From positions 1 to 64,000 of the forward strand of contig CAXVYR010000002.1 of assembly GCA_963666975.2 (NCBI GenBank): a stretch of 64,000 bases of DNA. The letters run 5' to 3'. Below, one piece after another: positions 2,536-21,483 of the stretch. Numbering within the stretch: the stretch's first letter is position 1; every line of letters begins with the position of its first letter. The position numbers and the translations under genes are program-made. The DNA comes from Terriglobia bacterium (lineage in GTDB: Bacteria > Acidobacteriota > Terriglobia > 2-12-FULL-54-10). The notes under the pieces are model-generated. The model worked only from the letters and a program-made list of their open reading frames with translations, did no database searches and had not been told where the DNA came from.

Positions 2536-2822
2536 TCATGACGGTTTGCGACCTCTTATGAGCGGCGGCGTGCGGTCATCGCCAAAATACTTCTCGCTCC
2601 GGTAGCGCAACCACACACGCAACACCTGGGGGACCTTCTCGCGCTCGGCCCCGCTCAACGTCTCATACAGCGTCATGGCTTTCTCTCGCTCGCCCCGGCA
2701 AGCGCGGTTGTTGTGCGCATCCCAGAAGCTGCGAGCAACGCGGATGCGGCGGCAGATCTCCTTGATCAAAGCCGCGTTTCTTCGGTGAGCGGCTTGTCGT
2801 GGTCTCTTTTCTTCGTGGGCAT
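2536..2822 (-). CDS. Small conserved hypothetical protein (family often mislabelled 'precorrin-3B methylase'); apparent 5' frameshift
   Basis: Segment ICRRIRVARSFWDAHNN...WLRYRSEKYFG resembles a small conserved family (recalled, not searched). The ATG at 2822 is out of frame with the body. Confidence 0.55.
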
Positions 2823-2951
2823 GGTCGTCCTTCGGAGCGGGACTCTAACGTTCTCCGCGCATTTTACCAAACGCGGTTAATTTGTGGGTAAAAAGGGAGT
2901 CATTTGGTCCGGGGTCATGGTCGTCCTTCGGAGCGGGACTCTAACGTTCTC
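2820..2951. repeat. Two perfect 36-bp direct repeats, 60-bp spacer
   Basis: CATGGTCGTCCTTCGGAGCGGGACTCTAACGTTCTC at 2820-2855 and 2916-2951. Confidence 0.9.
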
Positions 2952-3313
2952 GGCATGATGTTTTGAACCAGACGACGCGAGCTTCTTCGTTGGACTCAAC
3001 TGTGCGCAAGTAGAATAATGACCTGACCGGATGTTTACGTACCACCTGAAGTGAGAGAAAATCTCACGGCCGATTCGCCCCCGCTTCCGAAGCAGCTCCC
3101 CGTCAGAACAGCCTTCAGCGGGTATATTCGCAACGATTACCCCTGACTAACGGCGTAGTGTTTACCTATTCGGCGCCAGTGGCCGGCCTTGCGGAATCTG
3201 GCTCTCCAAAAAAAGGTAGATTGTCGCCTTACCCCTACCCCCTGTATCAAAGGGTCCCAAACCAAGCCCTTCTAACCCATTGAGGAATCAATAGAGGCGT
3301 CTGCCATTTCTGA

Positions 3314-3341
3314 CCGTACCAAACCATGTGTTTTGGTACGG
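3314..3341. promoter_or_regulatory. 10-bp inverted repeat, res-site/operator-like
   Basis: CCGTACCAAA-N8-TTTGGTACGG. Confidence 0.35.
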
Positions 3342-3766
3342 ATGTACGATCACGAACGTGCGATCCGGTGTAAAGGACCTCTCTCCAGGGCGAGACTATT
3401 CAAAGCACCAGATGTCCCACGCTTAAACTTCGTCGCATAGAGCTCTTCCTGCGCCAGCTTTTTCAGAGCCGAGAGGACCGTTTATCGCGGGCAATCGCCG
3501 AAGATAGTGATCTGACCAAGGATTTTTGTACCATGAAAGGCGGAGAAAAGGACTGGGGAAATCCAGGCGAGAATGGAGAAGCAGCAACCGGGTGAATATA
3601 AAAGCAAACGCTTCCACGATGCAAGCCTTTCCCTAAAGCTCTCAGACCTTGGAATATTCCATGTCCAATCCCACCGCTGGCAGGATGCGACTGCAACAAA
3701 AGCAGATGGGTGTATAATTTCCACAAACAGTTGTTCAAAAAGGATATTCCCATCGGGGTCTCCGAT

Positions 3767-6700: not shown

Positions 6701-7448
6701 GCAGGAGCTGGCAAGTCAGGAAAACGCGGGGGGTCGGTCAGAACCTGTACGAGGCGGATTTCTCTCCCGCGATCAGGAGCGAGCTACGCTTAGTCCTCTG
6801 CCAGGGACCGAGAAGGAATTGCAGTCCATCTACGCGCAGTTAGAAAAGCAAGATTGGCAGGTGGAAGTGTACAGCGGACAGAACGCATTGGAGGAAGCTG
6901 TCAAGCGCGTCCAGGGCCCGCGAGTGCTGCATCTGGCCACCCACGGCTTCTTTTTGGAGAACCAAGAGGACTTGCGGCGCGACAGGGGTGCCGATATCCC
7001 TTCGAGTCAGGAAAACCCCATGCTGCGCTCCGGCCTCTTCTTTGCTGGGGCCAATCGTGGTTTGAGGGGCGCTGCCCCCTCTGCCGATCTGGACGATGGC
7101 GTTCTAACGGCATACGAAGCTATGGGACTGAACCTGCAAGGCACCGAGTTGGTGGTTTTGAGTGCCTGTCAGACAGGCTTAGGCCAGGTGCGTAATGGCG
7201 AGGGGGTGTTTGGCCTGCGCCGCGCTTTGCAGGTGGCTGGCGCGGAAGCGGTGTTGATGTCGCTGTGGCCTGTCCCTGATAACGCGACCCAGGAGCTGAT
7301 GAGTCTGTTCTATGCCAAGTGGCTGAACGGTCGAGACAAGCACCAAGCCCTGCGGGAAGCGCAACTGGATATGCGGGAGAAGATCAAGGAACGCTACGGA
7401 CGCGACCTGCCCTTCTACTGGGGAGCGTTCGTGCTGGTTGGCCGCTAG
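3767..7448 (+). pseudogene. TPR-repeat + CHAT (caspase-like) protein, split by two frameshifts (about 5.0 and 5.5 kb)
   Basis: ORFs 3710-5077, 5053-5520 and 5514-7448 join into one protein: hydrophobic N-terminus, 42-aa TPR units (HPDVAASLNNLA..Y..QGKYAEAE), and a CHAT domain with HLATHG, LSACQTG and C-terminal WGAFVLVG. Confidence 0.88.
4045..5640 (+). repeat. Tandem 126-bp coding repeats (about 12-13 TPR units)
   Basis: Near-identical units, e.g. CAGGGCAAATATGCCGAGGCTGAGCAGCTT, recur every 126 bp. Confidence 0.9.
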
Positions 7449-8073
7449 ATACCGCCTGAGAAAACCGAAACTCCATTATGCAACTTTATCCTCACTTAAA
7501 CTAAATCCTGCGTGAAAAAATAACACTCAATCTTTCTTCTTCATGGTCACAATCAAAAATCATACTAAGACTGAAACTCCGGCTTAGGCTGCTTGACCAT
7601 GGACAGTGTCCGGTACTATTTGGCTCTTACTTTGATAATGGCAATCCGGCGGGAAAAGTTCCGGTAAGTTACTGGGAGCTTCCAAGGTGACACCCGCGAC
7701 AATGTGGCAGCACACACAGGAACGGGTGGAAGGGCGTTGGAAAAGCTAAAACTCCCGGCAGGACCAGCCCTACTGTATCCGTGTGAAACTTCACACGGGG
7801 CCTAGAATCATTTGGCGAACGGTGGGAGGCATCTGAGAGCCTTGGAAGGGTCCAGGCGGTGCTCCAGGCCAAGACAGCACCCAACACAACCTCGCCGGCT
7901 CAATCTAAAATTCCTCAGATGCCTAATTGTCGAATGATGCCCATTGGCGCTTCACCGGTGGCTCTTTTTCTCCGATAAAAAGAACGTCAATCGGCGGTTC
8001 TATTCCGGATGATGGTGGATAGCGGCTGCTGGCGGCGGTCTTCGCGGCCAGTTCGATGATTGCGACGCGGTAG

Positions 8074-8150
8074 GAAGGCAGAAGCCGTTGGTGGAGTACA
8101 AGGGGTTTCTGTACCAAGCCGAGAGTTGGAAGACGGCCCGACGGGTGGTA
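8074..8150 (+). mobile_element. Short IS1380 transposase fragment
   Basis: AAGCCGTTGGTGGAGTACAAGGGGTTTCTGTACCAAGCCGAGA nearly matches about 27995-28040 inside the IS1380 copy. Confidence 0.8.
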
Positions 8151-8423
8151 CCTTCTCTGAGGTTTCGAGGGTTGTATCGGCAACACTACTCGATCCCACT
8201 CCACATTTGCAGGCTATTTCCATGAATTCAGGTTGAGGTACGACTTCCTCTTTTACCCATTTTGACTCGCCGATGAAGAGGGTGTCGAAAACACTTGACG
8301 GCTCAAACTCGATCCACTTAGGTTCTAAGGTCCGAAGTACTCCATTCTCGACGCATGCACGACAGGTGCCGATGGTCGATTTACCTGTGCTGGGCTGGAA
8401 GCTGGTGACCATCAAATGGAAGA

Positions 8424-8872
8424 AGTCGGGGTGTTTGAGCTTCGTCAGCACCTCAGGATGATTCCGAATCAATTCATTTGCGGCTTCTGTGCAGGCTGCC
8501 GCTGTATTGCGAATAATTTCTTCTGTGAGTTCATCCGGTCCGGCCTCTAAGCAATCATGGGCCACCTCTTCAAGGTCCAACAATGGTTTAGTTTTATGTA
8601 TGAAGTCAATAATGTCAGTAGTCCCCTCAGGCGGATCGGGATGAATGAGTCGGGGTGTTTGAGCTTCGTCAGCACCTCAGGATGATTCCGAATCAATTCA
8701 TTTGCGGCTTCTGTGCAGGCTGCCGCTGTATTGCGAATAATTTCTTCTGTGAGTTCATCCGGTCCGGCCTCTAAGCAATCATGGGCCACCTCTTCAAGGT
8801 CCAACAATGGTTTAGTTTTATGTATGAAGTCAATAATGTCAGTAGTCCCCTCAGGCGGATCGGGATGAATGA
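8424..8872. repeat. Tandem duplication, 224-bp period
   Basis: Unit AGTCGGGGTGTTTGAGC...CGGGATGAATG starts at 8424 and again at 8648. Confidence 0.92.
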
Positions 8873-9531
8873 CGACAGTGCCGGCGACGGCTAGGACGGT
8901 ACGGCGCGGCCGGGTCAGGATAATCAGCTTGTGTTTGGAGTATTTTTGGCCATCAGGGAGTGTGGCACACGTATCGGCGGCAATGATCAAACCATCGCGA
9001 CTCGGTCCGGCAACGATCAACGTGCCTGTGCTGCGCAAGCAATCCATGTTCCCCTCCTGATTCTGCAAGCTCATTTCCTTAAGCATACTTCCGGCTGTTC
9101 ATCTTATCCCCTCCCACGACCGAGAAGTCTGCCAAATCGGTCCGGTTATACACACCTAGGTTTTCCGGTTGCAGTGGCAGCTTTGCTATAAGATTTACCT
9201 CCAGCAGGCTGATCGAATACCTGGAGGAAGCCGCACCAAACCAAATCATTTGATACAGCTGAAACTTATCAATGACGCAATTGGTTTTTCAATATCTTAG
9301 CGGCTCTGATTACCCGACCTTTATACAGCCGGCAAGGCTAAAAGTTCTTAATGCACCGTTTGTTCGGAAGTAATGAATCCGGCACCGCGACCAAGTCGGC
9401 AAGAATGTGTAAAATAACACCGAACGGATAGCGACTGGTAGGCCACCAGCCTGCGACACGGCGGGATGCCTTCCCGCTCCCGCCTTCCGGCTCTCCAAAA
9501 TGCGGGAAATTGTTACACGGGAAGGTGACCA

Positions 9532-9765
9532 GTGCCCAAGCGCGAATCTGCTACTCCTCAGGCGAACCCCGAAAAAACGTCAGGCGATGTTTCGGGTCGG
9601 TTTGATCATGAGATTGTTGACATCCACGAGGTTGACCTGTGCGCACTCTCGAAGCTGCTAGATCACAAGAATATTTCCCCCACGGAAGATTTCGCCAAGG
9701 TCGATGACGATAAGAAGCGCCAGGCCGTTGAGATGCTGCCACGCCTCAATGGGGGTGCAAAGTGA
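9532..9765 (+). CDS. Hypothetical protein, 77 aa
   Basis: GAAGG upstream of GTG; stop overlaps the next start (GTGA). Confidence 0.5.
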   Translation: MPKRESATPQANPEKTSGDVSGRFDHEIVDIHEVDLCALSKLLDHKNISPTEDFAKVDDDKKRQAVEMLPRLNGGAK

Positions 9766-10520
9766 GCGGGCAGGTGTGGCGGGACTTGCTTGAACTTGAG
9801 GAGCGAAAGAAACGGGAGTTGCTGGTACTGCAACAGAGACTCAGAGATGAGCAAGATGCGGAAGACATGCTGTGGCCACCTCCAATGACCGAGGCCCGGA
9901 TTAAGCAAATGGGGGAGGAGGACTGGGCTAAGAAGCAGGGGGGAGAGGCATTCGTCCGGCAAAAAATCCAGGACTTCAAAGAGGTATTGGAACGTCCAGA
10001 ATTCAAGGAACGGGTTGAGAAACTGGAGAAGAGGAAGGCCCATCACAAGACGGCAGAAGAGATGCAAATTATAGTACAAAGCTTGAAGGAAATTGCCGAG
10101 CGGAGAGCCGAACTCGAACAAGCCAGAAAGCAGGAGAGTCCCCCAGGTTCCAATCAGGGACGCGAGCCGTTCCAACCAGACAGCAAGCGTGATGCGTCGG
10201 CACCCGCAGAGGAACAAAACTCGGGAGCATCTGGAACCCTTTCAGCTTCGACCCAGGCAGGAAAAACCGTTCCCAAGCCTAGCGAAGCGGAACCGACAGG
10301 TGCGGCGGATAACAGCGGGACAGGTAACCGCAAGGGATACCGAACGGAAGTTCGACAATGGATGAAACGTAAGAAGCTGAAAAAAATAGACCAGGCAGCC
10401 AGTAAACTAGGGGTTTCCCCAGACGTGCTGAAATCCATCATGTCCGACAGGGGTAAGCCTCGCTTCGGTAAAGTAAGCTTGCAAAGCGTCCTTAAGCAGA
10501 TTGGCTATAAGGACGAGTAG
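9762..10520 (+). CDS. Hypothetical protein with coiled-coil N-terminus and probable C-terminal HTH
   Basis: C-terminal IDQAASKLGVSPDVLKSIMS is HTH-like; translationally coupled to the upstream ORF. Confidence 0.65.
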   Translation: MSGQVWRDLLELEERKKRELLVLQQRLRDEQDAEDMLWPPPMTEARIKQMGEEDWAKKQGGEAFVRQKIQDFKEVLERPEFKERVEKLEKRKAHHKTAEEMQIIVQSLKEIAERRAELEQARKQESPPGSNQGREPFQPDSKRDASAPAEEQNSGASGTLSASTQAGKTVPKPSEAEPTGAADNSGTGNRKGYRTEVRQWMKRKKLKKIDQAASKLGVSPDVLKSIMSDRGKPRFGKVSLQSVLKQIGYKDE

Positions 10521-10527
10521 CGGCACT

Positions 10528-10662
10528 ACTCACGATCAACTCACCTTTACTCACCTTTTGGTCACCTTTACTCACCTTTTGTCTAAGTTACAGATTTCCC
10601 ATAACTAAATAACTCAATAGGTGAGTAATTTATTCTCACTTGCTGAGCAAGCCAGCTCACCT
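10528..10662. repeat. Helically phased TCACCTTT array plus inverted copy (protein-binding sites or iterons)
   Basis: TCAC cores at 10530, 10541, 10551, 10562 and 10572. The 20-mer TCACCTTTACTCACCTTTTG occurs twice. Inverted AGGTGAGTA at 10619 after an AT-rich stretch. Confidence 0.75.
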
Positions 10663-10678
10663 GTAATTTGAATCTATT

Positions 10679-11131
10679 ATGCATAAGCAGTTATCCAGGG
10701 CGGCGATTGCCGAGTCAAATGAGCAAGGGGCCAAGGGCAGAGACGTTCAAGACATCCTCTGCGAGTTTGGTGATTGCCCGGCGTTGTTGCCGTGCAGGGA
10801 AGTCGAGGCGGTTTGCACCGGAGTAGAGCGAGTTTTGTTCCGGGGGTTCGGTGAGCGGCTGGTCTTTACCTTTGGTGTTGCAATCCCCCAAGAATTTGCA
10901 GGCACGAAACTTCAAATGTACGTTCGCGCACCCCCTAGCTGGAAGCGACCCCCAGTTTCGTCAAAGCTGTTCAAAGTCGTCGCAGCCGCTTGCGGTGAGT
11001 TGCCTCGCCGTCGGCGAATAACCGGGAACCTGTTCGTAGGGAAACTTTTCCTATGTCGTCTGAAGCAAGTCGGTGAGAGAAGTGCAACCTATTCGGTTGT
11101 AGAGACAATCTTGGAGAGACTAACAGGGTGA
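10679..11131 (+). CDS. Hypothetical protein, 150 aa
   Basis: First ORF after the repeat array; stop overlaps the next GTG at 11128. Confidence 0.6.
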   Translation: MHKQLSRAAIAESNEQGAKGRDVQDILCEFGDCPALLPCREVEAVCTGVERVLFRGFGERLVFTFGVAIPQEFAGTKLQMYVRAPPSWKRPPVSSKLFKVVAAACGELPRRRRITGNLFVGKLFLCRLKQVGERSATYSVVETILERLTG

Positions 11132-11184
11132 ATCGCATGACAGACACAGCACCTTTACTCATACGCTTGCCTATACCTATACCC

Positions 11185-12514
11185 CACTGCTGTCCGGCTA
11201 AAATTTCAGAACAGCCAACAAGTCTCATGAGAGCAAAAGGTTACGGGCATTGGAGCATTTTTCGATTTGAAATCCGCGAGGGCGAAAAATGGCTTTGAAC
11301 GTAAAGACTGGGGTAGGCGACAGAATAGTGCATGAACATCGGTCGCACCGTTTTCGCTCAGCTTATGGATCACGTGCCCTCGTACGAGTTTCACAAATGC
11401 GTCACGCGCTACCGTGGCGACGATCACCTGCGAAGCTTTTCTTGCTGGGACCAGTTTCTGGCGATGGCGTTCGCTCAGTTGACTTACCGCGAGAGTCTCC
11501 GCGACATCGAGGCGTGTCTGCGTTCCATGACCAGCAAACTCTACCACATCGGATTGCGCGGCAACGTGGCGCGCTCGACACTGGCCGATGCCAACGAGTC
11601 GCACGACTGGCGCATCTACGCGGACTTCGCCCAGGTGTTGATCGGCATCGCACGGCCTTTGTATGCGCGCGATCCGATCGGCGTCGATCTGGATCAGAGC
11701 CTGTACGCGCTGGACTCCACCACCATCGACCTCTGCCTCTCGCTGTTTCCGTGGGCACGATTCCGCCAACACAAGGCTGCCGTCAAACTGCATACGCTGC
11801 TGGACCTGCAGGGCAACATCCCCACGTTTCTCCGCGTCACGGCCGGTGCCGTGCACGATGTCAACATCCTCGACGAGATCGTTCCGGAAGCGGGCGCGTT
11901 CTACGTGATGGATCGCGGCTACATCGACTTCGAGCGACTCTTTGTCTTCACACTCTGCTCCGCATTTTTCGTCGTGCGGACGAAAGAGAACGTCTTGCTC
12001 CAACGCCGCTATTCTCATCCAGCAGACAGAACCAGCGGCTTGCGATCCGATCATACCGTGATCCTGACCGGGAACGCCTCGGCCAGGGCATACCCCGATC
12101 CGCTACGGCGCGTTACGTACTTCGATGCAGAAACAAACAAGCGCCTGAAGTTTCTTACCAACAATTTCGTGCTACCCGCACTCACTATCGCTCAAATCTA
12201 CAAGTGCCGCTGGCAGGTGGAACTGTTCTTCAAATGGATCAAGCAGCACCTGCGAATCAAGGCATTCTATGGCACCAGCCAAAACGCAGTGAAGACTCAA
12301 ATCTGGATCGCCGTTTCGATCTATGTACTCGTGGCCATTGTCCGGAAGCGTCTCGCTTTGGAAGCCAGCCTTTACCAAATTTTACAGATTCTCAGTGTTA
12401 CTCTTTTCGAGAAAGTGCCCATTTTACAGGCCCTGGAAGCATCGGGCTCCCAAGACGATTTAGTCAGAAATCCCAACCAGTTGATTCTGTTCGAGTTTTA
12501 ACCGGACAGCAATG
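11185..12514 (+). mobile_element. Complete IS4-family insertion sequence
   Basis: IRs CACTGCTGTCCGG / CCGGACAGCAATG. 9-bp target duplication CCTATACCC at 11176-11184 and 12515-12523. Confidence 0.93.
11332..12501 (+). CDS. IS4-family DDE transposase, 389 aa
   Basis: ALDSTTIDL, VMDRGY and YKCRWQVELFFKWIKQ (YREK motif). Confidence 0.95.
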   Translation: MNIGRTVFAQLMDHVPSYEFHKCVTRYRGDDHLRSFSCWDQFLAMAFAQLTYRESLRDIEACLRSMTSKLYHIGLRGNVARSTLADANESHDWRIYADFAQVLIGIARPLYARDPIGVDLDQSLYALDSTTIDLCLSLFPWARFRQHKAAVKLHTLLDLQGNIPTFLRVTAGAVHDVNILDEIVPEAGAFYVMDRGYIDFERLFVFTLCSAFFVVRTKENVLLQRRYSHPADRTSGLRSDHTVILTGNASARAYPDPLRRVTYFDAETNKRLKFLTNNFVLPALTIAQIYKCRWQVELFFKWIKQHLRIKAFYGTSQNAVKTQIWIAVSIYVLVAIVRKRLALEASLYQILQILSVTLFEKVPILQALEASGSQDDLVRNPNQLILFEF

Positions 12515-12811
12515 CCTATACCCATATCCGTACTCATACCAGCACCTATACCAACATCTGCCTGGAGAAGTGCCAGTGAAAAGAACATCTTGGCAGTTTT
12601 CGATGCAATAAGTTTCGGTGCAACATCACCGAAAAAACAGCAGATCAACAGGGCGGAGACGAAAGTCCCCGCCCATCTGCCTGAGTTAGGAGAAAAGAAC
12701 AAAGATGTCAAAGGGACAAGAAACGAATATCGCTCGATTGTCATTCTGGAAGCAGCAGGCGCGATCGGGCCTGTCGATGCTGTCCCAGCCCATGCAGAGT
12801 GAGGCAACAAC

Positions 12812-14170
12812 ATGAACACGAACAAAGCGGAATTCGCACGGCAGACTTTCACGGTCTCGCGTGAGCTGGAGTACTTCTCCGAAGCCGAGCTCACGACGCA
12901 GACCGGGTACGACAAGGAAGACTGGTGGCCCGGCGTGGTAGCTAAGGAACTCATCGACAATAGCTTGGACGCCTGCGAGCAAGCCGGAACGCCGCCACGC
13001 ATCGCGGTAGAGTTCCGAGGCAGCTCGCTCACCGTAGCCGACAACGGCCCCGGCCTTAGGGCCGAAGTGCTCGAGCGCATCCTGGACTTCAGCAGCCGGA
13101 CGAGCAACAAGGCCGCCTACGTCTCGCCGACGCGTGGCGCTCAGGGGAACGCGCTGAAGGTCGTCCTGGCCATTCCCTACGTGCTCGGCGGTGGGAAGGC
13201 TGGCAGGGTTGAGCTTGAGTCCGCCGGCGTCCGGCATAAGGTGGTGGTCTCGACCGACCAGGTTCTCCAGCGGCCGCAGATCAACCACCGCCAACAGCAA
13301 ATTGTAAAAAACAAGGGAACGCTCATCAGGGTGCAGGTGGATTCAGCTAGCTTAAAAAAACTCGAACCGGACCCCGGATTTTTACAAAACCTCGTCCGTG
13401 ACTACTCTTTATTCAACCCGCACGTTACCTTTAATTTACTAGTCCACGGGAAGCGCACGGCGGTGGAGGCCACCACACCGAAGTGGCAGAAGTGGCTTCC
13501 TACCGACCCGACATCCGCCCACTGGTATGACCAGGATCGGCTGGAGACCCTTATCGGCTGCTACATCGCAGCCGAGCGCGACGGTGGCAGAGTCCGTACC
13601 GTGAGGGAGTTCGTCTCCGAATTCCGTGGTCTGTCCGGCACGGGGAAGCAGAAGCAGGTGAGCGGGCGCGCCGGTCTGGAGCGGGCCTTCCTGCATGACC
13701 TCGGTCGGAACGGCAGGTTTGACCGGGAGCGCGTCACCGGACTGCTGGCTGCCATGCAGGAATTGTCCCGGCCGGTGAAGCCGGAGGCGCTAGGGTTGCT
13801 CGGCAAAGATCACTTCGCAAAACGTCTCCAGCCTGATGGTGAGACTTTCCGATACACGTTGAAGAAAGGAACTGACGGGCGCGGTCTGCCGTACCTGATC
13901 GAGTGCGCCTTCGCCATGACAAAGGATGGCGGCCCTCGCGGTCTTCATGCCGGGATCAATTGGAGCGTGCCGCTGGGTAACCCGATCAAAGACGACGCCT
14001 TCCGCATCGACGACCGGAACGAAGTTGCCGGCCTGACGGCGCTGCTGGCGAACCGGCGGATTAACCTTAACCGCGATCCGGTTTGCCTGGCGATCCACCT
14101 AGCCTGCCCGCGCTTCCGTTACTTGGATCGGGGGAAAGGCAGCATCACACTCGGGAGCGACCATGAGTGA
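12812..14170 (+). CDS. Type IIB topoisomerase B-like subunit (GHKL ATPase, Topo VI-B/Topo VIII-like)
   Basis: Bergerat motifs KELIDNSLDA, VADNGPG, RGAQGNALK and KGTLI; H2TH-like REFVSEFRGLSG; C-terminal FRYLDRGKGSI. Confidence 0.8.
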   Translation: MNTNKAEFARQTFTVSRELEYFSEAELTTQTGYDKEDWWPGVVAKELIDNSLDACEQAGTPPRIAVEFRGSSLTVADNGPGLRAEVLERILDFSSRTSNKAAYVSPTRGAQGNALKVVLAIPYVLGGGKAGRVELESAGVRHKVVVSTDQVLQRPQINHRQQQIVKNKGTLIRVQVDSASLKKLEPDPGFLQNLVRDYSLFNPHVTFNLLVHGKRTAVEATTPKWQKWLPTDPTSAHWYDQDRLETLIGCYIAAERDGGRVRTVREFVSEFRGLSGTGKQKQVSGRAGLERAFLHDLGRNGRFDRERVTGLLAAMQELSRPVKPEALGLLGKDHFAKRLQPDGETFRYTLKKGTDGRGLPYLIECAFAMTKDGGPRGLHAGINWSVPLGNPIKDDAFRIDDRNEVAGLTALLANRRINLNRDPVCLAIHLACPRFRYLDRGKGSITLGSDHE

Positions 14171-15431
14171 AGGCATCAGTGATCTTCTGGCGCAGGGCCT
14201 GCTGTCGGTCACTAAGGACTGGGCCAAGGTCAAGAAGCAAGAAGAGCGTGACAGCCGCCAGGCCGAGCGCAGCCGGGAAAGGTATTTCCGGGGATATAGC
14301 TATCGGGTGACTGCGAAAGAAGCGGCTTACGCCGTCATGCGAGAGGCTTATGAGAAAGCCAGCGGCGGCGGGTGCTACCCGGCCAATGCGCGACAGATCA
14401 TGTACGCGGCACGGCCCGCCATCCAAGAGCGGACGGGGCAAACCTTGAGCGACATTTACTTCACCCAAGTACTGCTTCCCGACTACATTCGCGAAAACCC
14501 GGAGGAAACCGCAGGCTGGGACGTGGTCTATGACGCACGCGGGCACCTATCGGAACCGCACACCGGCAAACAGATCGGCCTGGGCACCCTGGAAGTTCGA
14601 GAGTACCTCCAGGACACGGAAGAGCCGCTCGATCTCGACATCAAGTTGCCGAGCCTGGATGGAAAGTTTCCGACCCGCGGCCCCCGCAACCGCTACAGCT
14701 CCGTGCTCTACATCGAGAAGGAGGGCTTCATGACTTTGCTCGATCGGGCGAAGTTCGCCGAACGCTACGACCTGGCAATCATGTCATCGAAAGGGATGGG
14801 CACGACGGCTGCCAGGACGCTGATTGAGAGCTTCTCTGAAACGGCCACCATCTTCGTGCTGCATGACTTCGACAAGGCAGGATTCAGCATCGTAGGGACA
14901 CTGAGCCGCGACACGCGCCGTTATCAGTACACATCGGATGTCAGGGTGGTGGACCTCGGCCTGCGGCTAGCGGATGTCAAGAAGTGGAAGCTTCAAAGCG
15001 AGGCAGTTAGTTATAGCTCCGACCCGACCTGGAATCTGCGAGAGAACGGCGCCACAGCGAAAGAAATAGCATTCCTGTGCGAGAAGCGCGGCTGGCGGCC
15101 ATACCGCGGCAAACGTGTGGAACTGAACGCCTTCACCAGCGACCAGTTCGTCGATTGGTTGGACTTCAAGCTCACCAAGCATGGCGTCGAGAAAGTGATC
15201 CCAAACAAAAAAACCCTGGAACAAGCCTACCGTCGTGCCGCCGCCGTCCGACGCTACCAGGAAAGCTTGGACAGCGCCGAAGAAGAGATCAGCACATACG
15301 CGGAGGGGTTGAAACTTCCAGGGGACTTGCGCAAACAACTCGCGAAAATGCTGAGCGAAGATCCAGCGTTGCCCTGGGATAAGGCGCTGGCGCAGTTGGT
15401 AGAGGATGAAGATGAGGCAGAGGATCAATAA
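14163..15431 (+). CDS. Type IIB topoisomerase A-like subunit (WHD with putative catalytic Tyr + Toprim)
   Basis: ARQIMYAAR (R-x3-Y), YDARGHL, LYIEKEG, SSKG, VLHDFDKAG (DxD) and RVELNA. Overlaps the B gene by 8 bp. Confidence 0.82.
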   Translation: MSEGISDLLAQGLLSVTKDWAKVKKQEERDSRQAERSRERYFRGYSYRVTAKEAAYAVMREAYEKASGGGCYPANARQIMYAARPAIQERTGQTLSDIYFTQVLLPDYIRENPEETAGWDVVYDARGHLSEPHTGKQIGLGTLEVREYLQDTEEPLDLDIKLPSLDGKFPTRGPRNRYSSVLYIEKEGFMTLLDRAKFAERYDLAIMSSKGMGTTAARTLIESFSETATIFVLHDFDKAGFSIVGTLSRDTRRYQYTSDVRVVDLGLRLADVKKWKLQSEAVSYSSDPTWNLRENGATAKEIAFLCEKRGWRPYRGKRVELNAFTSDQFVDWLDFKLTKHGVEKVIPNKKTLEQAYRRAAAVRRYQESLDSAEEEISTYAEGLKLPGDLRKQLAKMLSEDPALPWDKALAQLVEDEDEAEDQ

Positions 15432-15543
15432 ATGAAAATTTCTTCATTACTATTCTGGAACGAGCTATGAGACTTGTGCCTTTTTCAAAATCAGCGGACC
15501 CAATAGCCATTCCGAGTTATGAAGCCACCCAGACTATTCCGGC

Positions 15544-15822
15544 TTGGCTGTGGGGGGAAATGTGACCCACTTCTGTCGAGGCTGTGGAAGAGATCTCCCC
15601 GCCGACTCGAAGCGACTTTTTCACGAGGAATGCCTTGCTGCCGACAAGCGGGCTCGCACGGCAGTCCGCCGGGAGAGGGAACGAAAACAGCGGCAGGAAT
15701 ACCTTGCCCGTCAGACTTGTCCACACTGCCATCGAAAAATCGGGTCAGGGCGTCTCATAAAACCATTGTGTGAAACTTCACAGGGCAGCTTCCTGCCACC
15801 GGAGGCGGCTGGGGCGATATGA
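15544..15822 (+). CDS. Small Cys-rich putative Zn-binding protein
   Basis: CRGC, HEEC and CPHC motifs; stop overlaps the excisionase ATG. Start codon uncertain. Confidence 0.5.
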   Translation: MAVGGNVTHFCRGCGRDLPADSKRLFHEECLAADKRARTAVRRERERKQRQEYLARQTCPHCHRKIGSGRLIKPLCETSQGSFLPPEAAGAI

Positions 15823-16022
15823 ACCACCAATCTCAAAATGGGAACGGCCAGGAAAGGCTGCTCAGGGCGAAGCAGGTCGCGGAAATCTTGAACTGTTCGC
15901 CGGGGTGGGTACGCGAACACGCAATCAGAAGACAACCGCGACTGCCCGCCGTGAAAATGGGCGGTTTGCTCCGATTCCGTCGCCAGGATATTGAGGACTT
16001 CATAAAATCATGGTGTCAGTAG
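15819..16022 (+). CDS. Excisionase/AlpA-like HTH protein
   Basis: LLRAKQVAEILNCSPGWV...LPAVKMGGLLRFRRQDIEDFI; lies directly upstream of the integrase. Confidence 0.88.
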   Translation: MNHQSQNGNGQERLLRAKQVAEILNCSPGWVREHAIRRQPRLPAVKMGGLLRFRRQDIEDFIKSWCQ

Positions 16023-17753
16023 TAAAATCCCCCATCGGAATGGGGGTGCATATGTCGAGAGACAGGCATCAGACCGGCTGGGTCCATGAGACCGGCAAGA
16101 GGATCAAAAAGTGGAAGGGTCATTTCTACATTTACCGCACTGGCACTGACGGAAAAGAGCGGCGCCATCATAGGGCGGTGATCATCGGGCTCAAGGCCCA
16201 GATGAGAAAGTGGGAAGCGGAAAAGCGGCTTCAGGAAATCATCTACAAGGAGAACGGCCCCACAGCGCCGAAGGCTGATAGCGATGTCACGTTCGGCTGG
16301 TTCTGGCAGTGCCGATATATTCCCATGCGGTCGGCTTCCCTGCGAGATTCCAGCAAGGCGTCATTGAAAAAAGCCGGAGATCAACTTTTGCTAGAGTTCC
16401 GAGAGGTTGCCCTCAGTAAATTCGATAAGTTTGTTTGCCAAGATTATCTCAACGGTTTGGCTGTGAAGGGGTATTCCCACTCAGTCGTCTGCAAGGCAAA
16501 AACATATCTCAAGGCTGTTCTGGCGGAAGCGGTCGAGCAAGATTACATCGACAAGAATCCGGCAAAAAAACTCGGAATGCCCGTGACTAGGGAAGTCTCG
16601 AAGCGGAGCCTCAACCCGGATGAGATCGGCAAAAGCTCTTGAACGGCATGGAAGGGAGAGATCGTCTCATCCTGCGGATTTTCCTGATTTGCGGGCTCCG
16701 GCCGGGAGTAGCTTTTTGCGCTTCAATGGAAAGACTGGACATCGGGCGAGCTGATGGTCGATGAATCTGTTTGGAAGGGCAAGGTCGGGAAGACAAAGAC
16801 TGAGGGAAGCATGGGCCAAGTGACGCTGAGCGGTTCCCTTGAATGTGAACTGAGAGAATGGCGATATGAGCGCGGGAATCCACGGAGCTTGGCCGCTAGA
16901 CGATCGCCGCCTCCATTGAACAGAAGCACCGGATGATAACAGGTGGACTCGAAGTGCCCGTTGTAGGCGCTTTTTGCTCCCCGGACCGGGATCTCAGTCG
17001 AGTCCATGTCGGCACTACCCTACGGCGAATCTATGCCCTGCCGATCAGTTCCCGGTTCAAACGTGCCAGCCCTGCGAAGTTTTCCTCCTCAGCCAGCAAC
17101 TCCGTCTCGAAGGTTTGCAACCGGGATGGCAGTGCTGCGCATTCTTCTCGGAACCGACCAGCCGGAAGGTCGGAAAGTTGCGGCAGCGTATCCAGCCGGA
17201 CTGTACACCGTTCTGCCGTAGCAGGTCCGCGAGGGGCAACCGTGTGTTCTTCCCCCGAATCGGCTAGGTGCTCTTGATGAGTTCACCGAATCCCAATCGT
17301 TCGTCCAACTCCCGCACCAGAATCAACCCTCCGTTGGAGGGGATCCGTGGAAAGCGACCTTCAACGAGGCATTAAAAGTGAGTTGAAATGGCTGATTTTG
17401 TCTCTCACCCATTCGGTGTATACCTCCGCACGCCAAATCCTCCAGGCCCTGACATTTTCCCATCGGATCGAGGCTTGCCTATTGACGGGGATATATGGCT
17501 ACGGCGCAGCCTAAAGCCAGCGGCGGAACAAGCCGAAATCAAGGGGATCACGCTCCAGGCACTTCGCCGGACATTCGCAACGCAGATGCAGAAATGTGGG
17601 ACGGTGAAGGACGCCCAGACTCAGCTCCGGCACGCCTCACCGAATCTCACCGTGAGGACGTACATGCAGGCGATACCGGACAGCGTAAAGGCTGCGGTAG
17701 AGGCTCTCGACCGGCGGATTTGCCCACCTGAGCCGAAAGGGAGGGTGCAGTGA
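16010..17753 (+). pseudogene. Tyrosine integrase, frameshifted and interrupted by IS1380 debris
   Basis: N-terminal/core-binding part 16010-16642 (..YIDKNPA), CGLRPG near 16690, KTKTEGS, and C-terminal QALRRTFAT..LRHASPNLTVRTY. Confidence 0.88.
16883..17440 (-). mobile_element. Collapsed IS1380-family fragment inside the integrase
   Basis: Reverse complement matches 26940-27680 (e.g. ATGGGTGAGAGACAAAATCAGCCATTTCAACTC; AYNGHFESTCYHPVLLFN). Confidence 0.85.
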
Positions 17754-18712
17754 AACAAATCCATATTGAATCTCTGGAAGAATCTATTAATCGAATCGAG
17801 CAGCTGATTGGGTTGATGGAAGTGAGAGCACAAATTCTTGAAGGCACAAAACCGGGAATCAAGGACGCAATAGCAATCAGATTCCCCCACATCGCAAAAC
17901 AATGGGCAAGGACCATCAGGAATCAAATTCTTCCTGGCAGACTGCCGGCAGGCCCGGATCAATCGCGCAACCTTCGTGCGCCGTTCGTCCAGGCTGGCGA
18001 TGAGCGCACGGAGTTCCTCCGTCTTGCCCTCATACCACTCCGGCGGCACCGAGGCGGCCGCCTCCTCTAAAAAGTCTTCCGTCAGATGCTCCAAGCGGCT
18101 CAAGAACGGCTCGAAGGAATCCAATCCAACGACCTTTTCATATACAGAAAGCCGCGAGTACAGGCCTCGCAACGGCGAGTCGGGAAAGTTCCACTCATTG
18201 GCATTGAAGCAAAATCCCTGATCGATCATGCTGGCCACATACCCGTAGGAATTGATTTCCGACGCCCGGTGGAAAACCGATTGCCGCGAATCGCAGTTGC
18301 AGGTCCATTTGTCGAAGACCAGGATTCCGAGGAAACTGTCCCGGTTGGCCACCGCCGGGAGCAACGCATCGGGCAGGAAGTCGTATACAGGAGTCCGCAA
18401 GGGATCGCAGGGAAAGCGCGACCCGAACTGAAATCCGCTGGCACAACGGATGCGCTCGGCGCCCAGTTGAAAATACATTTCAGGGGTGTGCTCCACGAGC
18501 CATTCGCTGACTTCCACCACCTCCGGCTCCGGCACCGGCAATCCCAGTGTCCTGGCCAGCTTCCCGGCGAGCATCTCGTTGGCCAGGATGCGGACTCCCT
18601 GTGGATTGTTTTTAAACTTCACCACATAGTAGTAGCCGTCGTCACAGCGCAACAGATGGGATTGCGCTCCCCCTCGCAGTCTCCGCACATGTTCTACCGC
18701 TTGCTTGGCCAT
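17621..18712 (-). CDS. HipA-like (HipA_2-type) kinase; native C-terminus appears replaced after about 17925
   Basis: GGAQSHL, YVVKF, LANE, FDKWTCNCDSR and IDQGFCF. After RQSARK the frame runs antisense through element ORFs. Confidence 0.85.
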   Translation of the reverse strand: MAKQAVEHVRRLRGGAQSHLLRCDDGYYYVVKFKNNPQGVRILANEMLAGKLARTLGLPVPEPEVVEVSEWLVEHTPEMYFQLGAERIRCASGFQFGSRFPCDPLRTPVYDFLPDALLPAVANRDSFLGILVFDKWTCNCDSRQSVFHRASEINSYGYVASMIDQGFCFNANEWNFPDSPLRGLYSRLSVYEKVVGLDSFEPFLSRLEHLTEDFLEEAAASVPPEWYEGKTEELRALIASLDERRTKVARLIRACRQSARKNLIPDGPCPLFCDVGESDCYCVLDSRFCAFKNLCSHFHQPNQLLDSINRFFQRFNMDLFHCTLPFGSGGQIRRSRASTAAFTLSGIACMYVLTVRFGEACRS

Positions 18713-19142
18713 CGCCTATCCGGGTATCTAAAAAGTTGTCGAAGGAAATGTAGCGAGGATGCAGGCACAGAACAAGAGGAAAAGAGGATTGGACCTGCCT
18801 GCCGCGCGGTGCCTGCAAAACAGAAACAACAACAAACGCAAACCGGAGGGACCCGCTTCATCAGCCGTAAAAGCGCTGCCCATAACTTGTTATCCTTTTG
18901 AATCAGATGCTTGCCGTTGTGCTGACTTACCTGCCCTGGCACTTTGTCCAGGAAGCGGCGCAATTCAACTTGACACCTTTTATGGGATGCGATACACCAT
19001 GCTTGACAGCCATTTTAACGGTCGTCCAGACCGTCACAATGGACTTAAGCTAAGGCCCACGCGGGGCCAGTTTAGAATCCCAGAGCTTATATATATTCCT
19101 TGGAAGAAAAAAATCGCCTCGGACTGAAGAGGAGGAGAGCAG

Positions 19143-19841
19143 ATGAGCTTTGATGAAACAAGATATTTGGCGGCAAACGACGACGATCCCTACGAAGAAG
19201 ATGAGGTGAGCAAATACCGCGAGGAACCCGAAGAGCAGTCCGAGATGGAATTGGCAGAAGAGGATGAGGAAGAGGAATTGGAAGTGTTTCCTAGCTCTTC
19301 CGCTGAGCCTTTGGAGGCCATAGAAACATTGGGGAAGCCAAAGATACCAGAGCCTGAACCTGTTCCCGTACCGCCTGCTCGGGAACCGGCCAAAGTAGCT
19401 TCGATCAGCCGTTCGAAACCGAAAGCAGCAAAAGCTACGACTAAATCCAAGACGAAACCCAAAGCCAAACGCAAAGCCAAGCCCAGGACAAAGGTTAAAG
19501 TTGTTTCCCGCCGAGGGAAAACTGCGGCGGCCAAGACAAGAAAGAAAACTGCTCGCAGCCCCGAAACCGCAGGCAAGGCGAAGAGAGCAAGCGCCCGCAA
19601 GGCCGAACGCAAAACTAAAGCAGCAGTGCGCAAAACTAAGGCCCGCAAAGGCAAACTAAAAAGGGCGGGCAGCCGTAAAGGCAAAGCTGTGGCTCGCAAA
19701 GTTGCGGCGCGCAGGGCCAAACCGAGAAGAGCGGCAAAACGCAAAACGGCTTCAGTCCGGAAGACGAAAGCCCGTAAGCGCCTCAAAAAGCCCTCGAAAC
19801 CGAAGGGCTCCCCGAGACGCACCCGATCGCGCAGAAGATAA
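19143..19841 (+). CDS. Histone H1-like/HC2-like protein with acidic N-terminus and Lys/Arg/Ala-rich tail
   Basis: Strong RBS GAGGAG; E/D-rich first ~55 aa, Pro linker, ~140 aa K/R/A-rich tail. Confidence 0.75.
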   Translation: MSFDETRYLAANDDDPYEEDEVSKYREEPEEQSEMELAEEDEEEELEVFPSSSAEPLEAIETLGKPKIPEPEPVPVPPAREPAKVASISRSKPKAAKATTKSKTKPKAKRKAKPRTKVKVVSRRGKTAAAKTRKKTARSPETAGKAKRASARKAERKTKAAVRKTKARKGKLKRAGSRKGKAVARKVAARRAKPRRAAKRKTASVRKTKARKRLKKPSKPKGSPRRTRSRRR

Positions 19842-20100
19842 CTGCCCCCCCTTAATCATTGATAATTCTGGGATAATTCTGGCCCCGTCCCCGGGGCCAG
19901 AGCTTTTATCTTCTTATCCTCATTATTCTCTATCCTCCCCGTGAATAGGCTCTCGCGAACAGCCGGATTTGCTTCCGACTGGAGAGGCTGATATTCCGTT
20001 CCACGGGTAGAAGTAAGTTTGCCCGGCTCCCCCCTGAAGGTTTATTCTAAAAAGTATCTGTCGTCAGGGGAGGCCTTTCGGCGGGCAGGAGTGGCCGCGT

Positions 20101-20562
20101 ATGGTTGATTATCAGTTTGTTACGGAGCGCCTGGCCGTCGGTGGCGCCATCGAAACACCAGAAAATATGCGGGAACTGGTCCGGGACGGGATTACACACG
20201 TCGTCAACATGCAGTTGGAATTCGATGACGGCCTGATCTCCGATGGAACCGGAGTTCAGGTCCTGTGGAACGCTTGCGATGACGACTTTTTGCCGAAGCC
20301 CGCGGAGCTTTTCTGGAAGGGCGTCCGCTTCACGCTGGAAACGCTCCGCCATCCGGACACGCGGGTGTTGTTTCACTGCGCCATGGGAATCCACAGGAGC
20401 CCGCTCATGTTGCTGGCTGTCCTTCGCGTGCAGGGTCATGACCTGTGGCCGGCCATCCGCATGATTCAGGCTGCCCGCCCCCAGGCACAGTTCCCATCCA
20501 TTTACATAGATAGCGTGGAAGACTTTGTGCTGGAATATCAGGCCAGCGCAGAGGCGGAGTGA
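20101..20562 (+). CDS. Dual-specificity protein phosphatase family
   Basis: P-loop HCAMGIHRS (HCx5R). Confidence 0.88.
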   Translation: MVDYQFVTERLAVGGAIETPENMRELVRDGITHVVNMQLEFDDGLISDGTGVQVLWNACDDDFLPKPAELFWKGVRFTLETLRHPDTRVLFHCAMGIHRSPLMLLAVLRVQGHDLWPAIRMIQAARPQAQFPSIYIDSVEDFVLEYQASAEAE

Positions 20563-20589
20563 GAGCCCGCTTTCGTCAGCAATCCCTCG

Positions 20590-21483
20590 TTAAAAATCCA
20601 GGAAGAACTTCATCTCCAGACCATTGATCTGATACGCCGTGCGTTTCAGCGAGTAGTTGTAGGCGGCGGCGATCCCGTAGGAGGGGTTGAGCCACTTCCG
20701 AACGAAGACCGAGGTGCTGTAACTGCTGAACTCCACGTCCTGTGGAGTAAGCGCCAGGGTCTGCCAGGCCTCCCTCCCCCCTCCGGCTGCGAGGCCGACC
20801 CAATAGCTGCCTTCCCGCCCGTACTGGACCGCGCCGCTTAAGGATTTCGACTTCTGATTTCCCGGCCGGACGTTGTTGAAATTCAGACTCCCCTGAAAAA
20901 CAAAGTTCCTCCAATAGTAGATCGCCCCGGCCCTGCTGACTCGTCCATTGACGGGATTGCCGAAATACAGCCGCGTGAGTCCGCCCGTCAAAATCAAACC
21001 CGGCAACGGAGGAACCTTGAGGTTGGCATTCGCGTCATAGCGAAATCGCGGGAAAAAAGCAGCCGGGTTGTCCGGGCCGCCCCCGCTGAGGTTCAGGTTT
21101 GTATAAAACCACTTTGACCAGTTTACGAGCGCGCCGAAAACAAAAAGCCGCTCCGTCTCCCCAGGCCGCCGCTGCAAAATCACGTCGCCTGAAACGGTCA
21201 GCCGGTCCGATCGCTGATAAGACAACCCGAGGCCCGTACCCGCCCAATGGCCGAAATTGTTGCTGACGACATTGTCGAAACCGGTGGCCTCCATGCGAAA
21301 CCGCCGAATTATGGCCCCGGACAGCTCCTGCTTCGGGGAAGATTCGGCGGCTGGGCTGCTCTCAACGGCTGAACCCGATTGCGCAAAAGCTCCCGGAACA
21401 CTCAGGGCGAAAACGAAGATTGCCAGCAACCTTCTCCGACAGTAAATACGTTTATAGTGGCACCGTTTCATTACAACCATCAC
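20590..21483 (-). CDS. YaiO-family outer-membrane beta-barrel protein
   Basis: Signal peptide, amphipathic beta strands, FFPRFRYD motif and C-terminal Phe. Confidence 0.7.
   Translation of the reverse strand: MMVVMKRCHYKRIYCRRRLLAIFVFALSVPGAFAQSGSAVESSPAAESSPKQELSGAIIRRFRMEATGFDNVVSNNFGHWAGTGLGLSYQRSDRLTVSGDVILQRRPGETERLFVFGALVNWSKWFYTNLNLSGGGPDNPAAFFPRFRYDANANLKVPPLPGLILTGGLTRLYFGNPVNGRVSRAGAIYYWRNFVFQGSLNFNNVRPGNQKSKSLSGAVQYGREGSYWVGLAAGGGREAWQTLALTPQDVEFSSYSTSVFVRKWLNPSYGIAAAYNYSLKRTAYQINGLEMKFFLDF

Follow-up and report, generated by a model that had tools for sequence, protein, structure and literature searches.

A probable remnant of a compact integrated mobile element carrying a two-subunit topoisomerase VIII in a Terriglobia bacterium

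Among the type II topoisomerases, topoisomerase VIII (Topo VIII) is the smallest. In the passages cited here, the 2014 work placed it on plasmid-type elements with no viral signature genes, and also described integrated elements with attachment (att) sites in tRNA genes, intergenic regions and gene 3' ends, among them PaePan-E1 and SinFre-E1, both targeting the 3' ends of protein-coding genes, two smaller elements that lack conjugation genes (RosAzw-E1 and RhiGal-E1), and elements at various stages of deterioration, such as the decaying AmmDeg-E1 and Dehalobacter copies beside truncated transposases (PMC4117785). A survey published in 2019 covered 82 sequences, 7 of them split, added the split forms to the subfamily, and described Topo VIII as exclusive to mobile elements (PMC7671362); an integrase nearby and flanking att repeats serve as the criteria for a mobile element. 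The Topo VIII of pPPM1a relaxes and decatenates DNA, and the sole GxxGxA-type enzyme assayed, from A. degensii, linearised plasmid DNA with no relaxation (PMC4117785, PMC7671362). Full-text searches of the literature returned only reviews and passing mentions of topoisomerase VIII since the 2019 survey, and only a review and an Asgard-virus preprint for type IIB topoisomerases and prophages. The locus described here lies in a 64,000-nt stretch of DNA from a Terriglobia bacterium (GenBank assembly GCA_963666975.2, contig CAXVYR010000002.1; positions 1 to 64,000), the whole of which is referred to below as the window. Two adjacent genes, at coordinates 12812–14170 and 14163–15431, were identified from their sequences as encoding the B and A subunits of a two-subunit Topo VIII of the GxxGxA class, and the surrounding region is likely to be what is left of a compact integrated mobile element, of a kind with integrative plasmids or phage satellites, that has this enzyme as its conserved cargo.

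The published signatures of Topo VIII are a catalytic tyrosine in the motif Rxx[Y/F/M]Y, followed three residues on by an arginine and often then by a proline, a Toprim glutamate with DxDxxG and, in the B moiety, a Bergerat fold with N and G1 boxes and a G2 box of the GxxGxG or GxxGxA type; the T2BI box differs by subfamily, being RVELNAM in Topo VIII, R/KxExxA/S in Topo VI and xWELDAL in Mini-A (PMC7671362). Conservation of these motifs was judged on alignments of 15, 27 and 29 relatives and on 75–80 genomic relatives. The B protein of the window matched HATPase_c (1.2e-5), the NCBIfam Topo VI B model NF003218 (1.2e-15) and the Topo VI B structure 2q2e_B (8.2e-6), with ELIDN (residues 46–50), DNGPG (77–81) and GAQGNA (109–114) aligned to the N, G1 and G2 boxes. 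Residues E46, N50, D77, G81, G109, G112 and A114 were invariant in 27 B sequences, as were three lysines in the C-terminal half (K227, K279 and K442), and a GxxGxA-type G2 box was present in at least 68 of 75 relatives. The A protein matched the Pfam family TOP6A-Spo11_Toprim (2.9e-8). Its catalytic-tyrosine motif, RQIMYAARP (R77-Q-I-M-Y81-A-A-R84-P85), is preceded by only ~80 residues, with R77, Y81 and R84 invariant in two alignments, and its Toprim metal site consists of EKEG (E185-K-E-G), kept in 78 of 80 relatives, and DFDKAG (D235-F-D237-K-A-G240). The T2BI box RVELNAF (318–324) agrees with the published RVELNAM at six of seven positions, R318, V319, E320 and N322 being invariant, and relatives carry either RVELNAF (38/80) or RVELNAM (24/80). 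The GHKL-type B subunit and the Tyr/Toprim A subunit named in an earlier, first-pass annotation of the window were thus borne out by profile matches.

When the A sequence was searched against 72,556 plasmid records using tblastn, seven records matched. These were from Paenibacillus polymyxa M1 (NC_017543.1; 27.6% identity, 6e-28), Pseudomonas sp. Leaf58 (904 kb; 1e-27), P. amygdali (972 kb; 2e-27), H. jeotgali (7e-21), a second P. polymyxa, Synechococcus and Methylobacterium, the first four being organisms with named Topo VIII plasmids (PMC4117785, PMC7671362). The Candidatus Chisholmbacteria contig with a published split Topo VIII was also recovered, as a genomic relative with 44% identity (locus L078). 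No match was found in a collection of 50,697 phage records.

Topo VI of archaea and plants, in which an N-terminal portion of 5Y-CAP binds B, shares with the window pair the Bergerat B and 5Y-CAP/Toprim A fold families and adjacent genes in the order B then A. However, an identity as Topo VI was rejected, as the window pair scored far under the equivalog cutoffs (B, 57 against 274 bits; A, 40 against 424 bits with NF003335), the A match was confined to Toprim, and the T2BI box follows the Topo VIII pattern. Mini-A is likewise mobile-element-encoded and combines 5Y-CAP with Toprim, but it is ~300 aa long, carries xWELDAL and has no B partner (PMC7671362), whereas the window A subunit is 422 aa, carries RVELNAF and is encoded by a gene overlapping that for B, and this identity was also rejected. 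A sequence search of the PDB found no solved Topo VIII structure, the best match for A being Top6A (2zbk_A; E 0.51, Toprim region only).

Relatives of A are numerous: of 8000 candidates scored, at least 3430 protein clusters fell at E<=1e-3, the best non-self one being 85% identical. For genomic comparison, one genome per species was used; 303 candidate stretches were obtained, 204 of which encode A relatives, and the best 80 were kept as loci, which span Acidobacteriota, Planctomycetota, Verrucomicrobiota, Pseudomonadota and other phyla. B adjoins A in 77 of the 80. By reading frame, B and A are split in 44 loci, fused in 22 and partial in 9, and 5 loci, mostly at contig ends, have no B match. 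In trees of the A subunit the window sequence paired with the closest genomic relative, L001 (A 73% identical; support 99), in an Acidobacteriota group, and the split or fused state changed at least 11–12 times, 8 of these changes being forced by well-supported branches, in agreement with the multiple independent splits reported in PMC7671362. The window and L001 share the 8-nt overlap of the B stop with the A start, which is 4 nt in L002, a Bryobacterales metagenome-assembled genome (MAG). Comparison with L001 gave a ratio of non-synonymous to synonymous substitution rates (dN/dS) of 0.22 for B and 0.16 for A, and the two genes, which are intact, appear to be under purifying selection.

The window pair resembles the published two-subunit GxxGxA enzymes in having the sequence signatures of the subfamily set out above and in sitting by an integrase, here a pseudogene, in what is probably a mobile element. 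It is also split ahead of the long connecting helix, as in Chisholmbacteria, Woykebacteria, Actinobacteria, Ensifer and Proteobacteria (PMC7671362). It differs in that its T2BI box ends in F rather than M, in that Acidobacteriota do not appear in Table 1 of the survey, and in that the split state is commoner in its clade (44 against 22 fused among 80 loci) than in the survey (7 of 82) (PMC7671362).

The genes around the pair were examined using the list of open reading frames (ORFs) and their translations. On the + strand, 9532–17925 is a co-oriented run of ORFs in which most stops and starts overlap, as the first-pass annotation had stated; the overlaps are of 4–13 nt. The features of the run, in which HTH denotes helix-turn-helix, IS insertion sequence and SSB single-stranded DNA-binding protein, are as follows.

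9532–9765, + strand: 77-aa ORF, first gene of the run (ORF list; no family in Pfam, NCBIfam, PHROGs or PADLOC)
9762–10520, + strand: 252-aa probable HTH protein, which may regulate or bind the adjacent repeats (sub-threshold HTH matches)
10527–10664, no strand: iteron-like array of ACTCACCTTT-type words, candidate operator or origin (repeat and word counts)
10679–11131, + strand: 150-aa OB-fold protein, DUF669/PrgE-like, probable SSB (predicted fold, family matches)
11128–11184, + strand: 5' part (19 codons) of an IS-interrupted small ORF (frame arithmetic on coordinates)
11185–12514, + strand: IS4-family IS, transposase at 11332–12501 (389 aa), 9-bp target-site duplication (Pfam, inverted repeats)
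12524–12802, + strand: 3' part of the IS-interrupted small ORF, ending 10 nt ahead of the B start (no family match)
12812–14170, + strand: Topo VIII B subunit, 452 aa, Bergerat/GHKL ATPase and transducer, GxxGxA-type G2 box (profile and motif alignment)
14163–15431, + strand: Topo VIII A subunit, 422 aa, N-terminal long helix, short 5Y-CAP (Tyr81), Toprim, T2BI box (Pfam, motifs, tblastn)
15544–15822, + strand: 92-aa protein with two CxxC pairs, probable zinc ribbon (sub-threshold matches)
15819–16022, + strand: 67-aa HTH_17 protein, excisionase/AlpA-type (PF12728, 1.1e-10)
16010–17753, + strand: tyrosine integrase pseudogene in several frames (phrog_1, three-frame reading)
16879–17412, − strand: decayed DDE_Tnp_1_4 (IS4/IS1380-like) transposase gene fragment inside the integrase (tblastn, Pfam)
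17750–17920, + strand: small ORF overlapping the integrase stop, protein-like to ~17920 only (coding character, GC content at third codon positions)

Overlaps of 4 nt join the 77-aa and 252-aa genes, the 150-aa gene and the ORF starting at 11128, the 92-aa and 67-aa genes, and the integrase end and the ORF starting at 17750; B and A overlap by 8 nt, and the 67-aa gene and the integrase by 13 nt.

Downstream of A, at 0.4–0.6 kb, lie the excisionase (Xis)-type gene and the integrase pseudogene. The 67-aa Xis-type protein matched PF12728 (HTH_17) with 42 bits against a cutoff of 27, which upholds its earlier naming as an excisionase. The preceding 92-aa protein had been called a zinc finger, of which two CxxC pairs and sub-threshold matches to zinc ribbons (E 0.003–0.008) were found. 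The integrase, annotated before as one gene, is a pseudogene whose parts lie in different frames with an IS remnant inside. Its N-terminal part (16010–16642) matched profile positions 122–277 of phrog_1 (2.3e-16), and the C-terminal part (17388–17753), which follows the IS remnant in a third frame by a three-frame reading, matched positions 359–451 (3.6e-12); Phage_int_SAM_5 and Phage_integrase in Pfam were matched as well. The middle part (~16630–16890) adds two further frame segments, with two frame changes in ~80 bp. In the IS remnant, residues 1–27, 25–103 and 154–199 of an intact transposase from L002 matched 17412–16879 using tblastn, and the Pfam family DDE_Tnp_1_4 was matched at 1.1e-7 (30.9 bits, under the cutoff of 34.7) with stops in frame.

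The neighbourhood of Topo VIII was then compared across the 80 loci. ORFs were clustered and families extended by hidden Markov models, and ORFs of at least 230 aa within 5 kb were searched against Pfam in two batches; of the 161 that qualified, 11 were dropped (6 already annotated or known to have no match, and the 5 shortest). PHROGs was run on three loci. Loci whose flanks reached at least 5 kb on each side (n=35) were treated as well-flanked. A tyrosine or serine recombinase was found within 5 kb in 44 of the 80 loci and 26 of the 35 well-flanked ones, so that the link of B and A to recombinases, as well as the general reading of an integrated mobile element around a split type IIB topoisomerase, found support. 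A recognised replication-type gene was present within the same distance in 32/80 and 17/35, respectively. Among the well-flanked loci, 12 had both a recombinase and a replication gene, 14 a recombinase only and 4 neither. The replication-type genes encode prim-pol, D5-type, NrS-1-type, Toprim_3/VapE, DUF3631, DnaG zinc-ribbon, DnaB, AAA_25 and REP_ORF2-G2P proteins and a phage replication initiator, and their counts are lower bounds, as 47 of 71 and 46 of 78 scanned neighbour ORFs had no Pfam family. They often lie directly beside B, as in L001, L066, L038 and L077; in L001 the order is HTH_3, a 119-aa protein, a PriCT_1+DUF3987 primase-helicase (760 aa), B, A, a 108-aa protein and integrase. 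The other right-hand genes of the window recur rarely in the 80 loci (92-aa protein 0, Xis 1, integrase C-terminal part 2).

Exact repeats of at least 16 nt with one copy on the outer side of the integrase were sought as att-like repeats, and 8 matches were obtained, 7 of them credible. In these seven loci, direct repeats of 22–52 nt delimit Topo VIII elements of 8.8–17.1 kb, five of which are at tRNA or tmRNA genes.

L043: repeat 36 nt, element 8.8 kb, target tRNA-Thr
L002: repeat 22 nt, element 9.6 kb, no target found
L068: repeat 46 nt, element 10.4 kb, no target found
L015: repeat 52 nt, element 13.1 kb, target tRNA-Leu
L073: repeat 48 nt, element 13.5 kb, target tRNA-Arg
L053: repeat 42 nt, element 13.6 kb, target tRNA-Asn
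L038: repeat 27 nt, element 17.1 kb, target tmRNA

Compact elements of the layout proposed for the window therefore exist intact. The L043 element (166–8969) consists of six co-oriented ORFs of 91–274 aa (and a 50-aa antisense ORF) followed by B, A and integrase; three of the six ORFs were scanned and no Pfam family was found. As L043 is an intact, att-delimited analogue, the bare layout of unknown ORFs, B, A and integrase is a recurrent architecture and more than a product of decay. No recognised replication gene was found in the L002 element, and a primase gene is present in those of L068 and L038. Terminase genes were found in four of the 80 loci, TerS and TerL in L038 (12799–15307) and L077 (12106–14395), TerL in L053 (13759–15261) and TerS in L004 (11362–11676). 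They lie 0.1–2.5 kb downstream of Topo VIII, and in L038 and L053 they are inside the att-delimited elements.

One further relative is on a free plasmid, p11801_3 of Synechococcus elongatus PCC 11801 (CP143530.1; 15,453 bp; locus L081), where an A relative at 14036–15211 (40% identity, 6e-74) falls where the PLSDB gene table is empty. The B part probably spans the start of the record, and the plasmid carries a CyRepA1-family replication protein and no integrase.

In the left part of the run, upstream of B, the 252-aa protein has a charged helical N-terminal part, a low-complexity linker and a probable HTH at its C-terminus, where the last 63 aa gave sub-threshold matches to HTH_3 (E 0.012) and to HTH_31 and HTH_17 (0.11). 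No family was above threshold in Pfam, NCBIfam, PHROGs or PADLOC, nothing significant was found in a PDB sequence search, an Atlas lead to HTH_3/HTH_26 clusters scored just 0.83, and with two homologues besides itself the protein had too few for a profile or a fold. Its earlier naming as an HTH protein is thus kept as a weak candidate assignment. The phased repeat array that follows was confirmed, with six ACTCACCTTT-type copies in 126 bp, namely four in tandem at 10–11 bp spacing (starts at 10539, 10549, 10560 and 10570, + strand), one inverted (10617–10626, − strand) and one further direct copy (10655, + strand), giving periodicities of 10 and 21. These represent 6 of the 31 matches to ACTCACCTTT with up to 2 mismatches in the window, where 42 were expected and there is hence no overall enrichment, and all 3 of the exact ones. 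We infer that the array is a candidate operator and/or origin.

The first of two proteins listed as hypothetical in the first-pass annotation, of 150 aa, belongs to a family with 122 representatives at E<=1e-3. A single-sequence fold was unusable (pLDDT 39.7) and a model from an alignment of 81 sequences was taken instead (pLDDT 89.7), with the order strand1-strand2-strand3-helix-strand4-strand5. The best PDB match of the model was PrgE of pCF10 (8s4t_A; E 2.4e-4, TM 0.55/0.60), followed by ribosomal S12 and then SSBs, and 56 matches at E<=1e-3 were found in BFVD, among which were DUF669 proteins and a phage protein named 'single stranded DNA binding protein'. In the Atlas it was placed (0.95, 213 shared features) with viral clusters, in one of which 27% of members have DUF669. 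PrgE binds single- and double-stranded DNA (PMC11137577), DUF669 proteins have been argued to be phage SSBs (PMC4889955), and one has been shown to bind single-stranded DNA (PMC13687109). As the fold and family matches point to proteins of this role, the 150-aa protein is probably a DNA-binding OB-fold protein of phage or plasmid type, and a probable SSB. It resembles PrgE and the DUF669 models in its predicted OB fold, but differs in that the TM scores are just 0.5–0.6, in that its sequence has no acidic C-terminal tail, and in that no Pfam DUF669 match was found for the window protein itself, only for 3 of 81 family members (best 4.6e-5).

The second hypothetical protein, of 440 aa (11289–12611), was discarded as a wrong-frame ORF over the transposase gene of an IS4-family IS (DUF4372 3.2e-33, DDE_Tnp_1 8.2e-27). 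The IS has 19-nt terminal inverted repeats (11185–11203 and 12496–12514) and is flanked by the 9-bp target duplication CCTATACCC (11176–11184 and 12515–12523), and it is an intact IS in a simple insertion that is probably recent; two copies of the transposase with 81–82% protein identity are present in L002. When the IS and one copy of the duplication are removed, 11128–11184 and 12524–12802 share one frame. As the ORF so restored is not conserved in the 80 related loci, it may not be a real gene.

At the right end, the + strand ORF starting at 17750 runs, past ~17920–17960, antisense to the conserved core of a HipA_2-like kinase gene (17621–18712, − strand; Pfam HipA_2 2.5e-16, PADLOC PDC-M66A 5.3e-15, phrog_3162). 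The HipA_2-like ORF in turn extends ~100 codons beyond the family models into the antisense of the integrase 3' end, as though its own 3' terminus had been exchanged at an element junction. The GC content at third codon positions (GC3) is 0.46 in 17750–17920 against 0.73 in the HipA-like core. Because the coding character of the + strand ORF stops there and the HipA_2-like gene overruns its family models, a right junction near 17920–17960 is likely, and it may represent insertion into the 3' end of the HipA_2-like gene. For the left border, no marker (att-like repeat, tRNA or other Rfam family) was found, and low GC3 reaches left of 9532 from about 7990, the − strand ORFs in 7987–9086 having values of 0.53–0.57. 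These two ORFs (7987–8583 and 8547–9086) have no family or PDB match. They overlap where a 224-nt tandem duplication (8419–8866, 99–100% identical, not a multiple of 3) splits an apparent ~292-aa gene, and this duplication may have arisen by recent mutation or be an artefact of the assembly.

We infer that the whole of 9532–17920 is one element, and several observations weigh against this or against parts of the case for a mobile-element remnant. The borders are not established, as no att repeats and no tRNA-like fragment were found: the regions 7400–9600 and 17600–21000 have just two 11-mers in common, which is chance level, the best match in a blastn-short att search was 13/14 at E 0.72, and no tRNA-like fragment or T-arm motif was seen in 7000–21000, nor any Rfam match in 1–24000. 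The 77-aa, 252-aa and 150-aa genes of the left part were found in none of the 80 Topo VIII loci, the family of the last having been sought with a six-frame profile search. The GC3 of B (0.755) and A (0.719) is similar to that of flanking chromosomal genes (0.68–0.73) rather than to that of the element neighbours (0.45–0.65), and from this contrast the run could be a mosaic, or B and A could have been in the chromosome for a long time. Sequencing errors may account for the two small frame changes of the integrase but not for the ~500-bp IS remnant, and the 'split' calls in MAG loci that depend on one frame change may include assembly frameshifts.

Of the alternatives to the explanation preferred here, the likeliest is that the run is a mosaic, in which a left module (77-aa and HTH proteins, repeats and OB-fold protein) and a right module (B/A, zinc ribbon, Xis and integrase) derive from different elements joined through IS activity or tandem integration, or in which the left part is unrelated island DNA. 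The absence of the left genes from other Topo VIII loci is in keeping with this, as are the position of the IS exactly between the modules, the GC3 of 0.57–0.59 on the left against 0.72–0.76 in B/A, and the phage proteins that the OB-fold protein resembles. However, the genes all run in one direction, closely spaced and with stops overlapping starts, the intact 9-bp target duplication indicates that the IS is a simple insertion and not a rearrangement junction, and accessory genes vary widely between Topo VIII loci in any case; a mosaic is considered unlikely. An older boundary might also be marked by the palindrome GTGTGAAACTTCACA.

This 15-nt palindrome occurs exactly at 7781–7795, in the intergenic region after a CHAT gene, and at 15768–15782, in the 3' end of the 92-aa gene ~35 nt ahead of the xis start (0.07 copies expected at up to 2 mismatches). 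No third copy was found in the window, none was found in 81 loci, and the flanks of the two copies share no similarity. It was rejected as the att core of the present element, as xis and int would fall outside, there is no copy near 17920, and the flanks are dissimilar; it is a candidate operator or old att core.

Returning to the remnant of a single mobile element, its lack of a recognised replication gene bears on a second alternative, put forward in the first-pass annotation, that the region is a functional, undescribed class of small integrative element in which Topo VIII is the core replication or maintenance module and replaces a primase, helicase, Rep or relaxase. It is true that no primase, helicase, Rep, relaxase, capsid or type IV secretion system family was found in 9532–17925 with the four libraries (Pfam, NCBIfam, PHROGs and PADLOC), as had been claimed for all but Rep, and apart from the IS and integrase pieces the window contains no remnants of the L001 prim-pol or primase-helicase or of other locus ORFs. 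The 14 well-flanked loci with a recombinase and no recognised replication gene, the L043 element and the 9.6-kb element between 22-nt repeats in L002 likewise fit this explanation. Against it, integrated elements bearing Topo VIII, some of them small and devoid of conjugation genes, and the signatures seen here are already published (PMC4117785, PMC7671362), so that the class is not undescribed. As a general rule the replacement of a replication gene also fails, as almost half of the well-flanked loci (17/35) have a primase, helicase or Rep-type gene, with the L001 primase-helicase directly upstream of B. The absence of recognised genes is weak evidence where most neighbour ORFs have no family and only those of at least 230 aa were scanned, and since two IS events and the breakage of the integrase have degraded the window copy, functions absent from it may have been lost. 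This explanation is accordingly regarded as improbable.

That B and A instead form a defence or nuclease module, cleaving competing or invading DNA and not serving replication of the element, is very improbable: the linearisation of plasmid DNA by the A. degensii enzyme (PMC7671362, PMC4117785) and the neighbouring HipA_2-like kinase with its match to a PADLOC candidate speak for it, but B and A match no PADLOC model, the genes that recur beside them are for recombination and replication (recombinases; prim-pol, D5-type, DnaB and VapE-like proteins) rather than defence, and their ATPase and cleavage motifs are kept as in working type IIB enzymes, which leaves the earlier suggestion of cleavage of competing DNA unsupported.

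The window element is thus a degraded further example of the Topo VIII elements already described. Like the elements of the 2014 work it is integrase-linked, has no conjugation genes and is decaying through transposase activity, and its possible target, the 3' end of a protein-coding gene, recalls those of PaePan-E1 and SinFre-E1. It differs from the published elements, on which a PolA-like polymerase, DNA ligase, RepE, prim-pol or a DnaG-DnaB fusion is encoded (PMC4117785), in having none of these genes and, instead, one for the DUF669-like OB-fold protein. Phage satellites and P4-like integrative elements, which combine int, xis, a regulator and a primase-helicase or Rep with genes for exploiting the packaging of a helper phage, have a similar size range and an overall order like that in relatives such as L001, to which L004, L038, L053 and L077 add terminase genes, but neither a primase-helicase nor a packaging gene is present in the window element. 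To our knowledge, no satellite family described so far includes Topo VIII.

In the mechanism proposed for such an element, Xis and the tyrosine integrase would excise and integrate a circle of ~8–9 kb, the HTH protein would act on the phased repeat array as an operator and/or origin, and the DUF669/PrgE-like OB-fold protein would coat single-stranded DNA, while a B2A2 Topo VIII would relax or decatenate the small replicating circle. Alternatively, the Topo VIII of this clade may cleave DNA, by analogy with the one GxxGxA enzyme assayed. As the integrase has been lost and two IS events have occurred, the element in the window is probably fixed in place, and judging from its genes it is most likely now immobile, with B and A still whole.

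Elsewhere in the window, to the left of the run, three + strand ORFs with overlapping ends (3710–7448) encode TPR proteins of 455 and 155 aa and a TPR+CHAT protein of 644 aa, and look like one broken large TPR-CHAT gene or a gene triplet. A Mutator-family transposase gene is present at 98–1399 (− strand; 3.9e-35), and more decayed DDE_Tnp_1_4 transposase pieces at 26959–28475. An integrase C-terminal fragment (61840–62055, − strand) adjoins the only tRNA gene of the window, tRNA-Ser (61668–61757), which suggests a second integrated element.

On its own the window adds little, and it is the comparison with related loci that goes beyond published work. The split GxxGxA/RxxMY clade greatly exceeds the 82 published sequences in size, its members are typically on elements of 9–17 kb that integrate at tRNA or tmRNA genes, and the terminase genes in at least 4 of the 80 loci are at odds with the published picture of plasmids only and no viral signature genes. 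A bolder and improbable proposal is that the window element and L043-type analogues are widespread minimal integrating replicons, in which a two-subunit GxxGxA Topo VIII, in place of a primase, helicase or Rep, is the sole conserved DNA enzyme besides the integrase and performs the essential step for the excised circle, and that the members with terminase genes are the first Topo VIII-bearing phage satellites or mini-prophages. If this were true, the step might be a site-specific double-strand cleavage priming recombination-dependent or rolling-circle-like copying, or an obligatory decatenation. The compact elements would in any case provide convenient systems for examining the role of a topoisomerase in a small mobile replicon, and would also suit the question of what holds separate B and A subunits together in the absence of the Topo VI interface.

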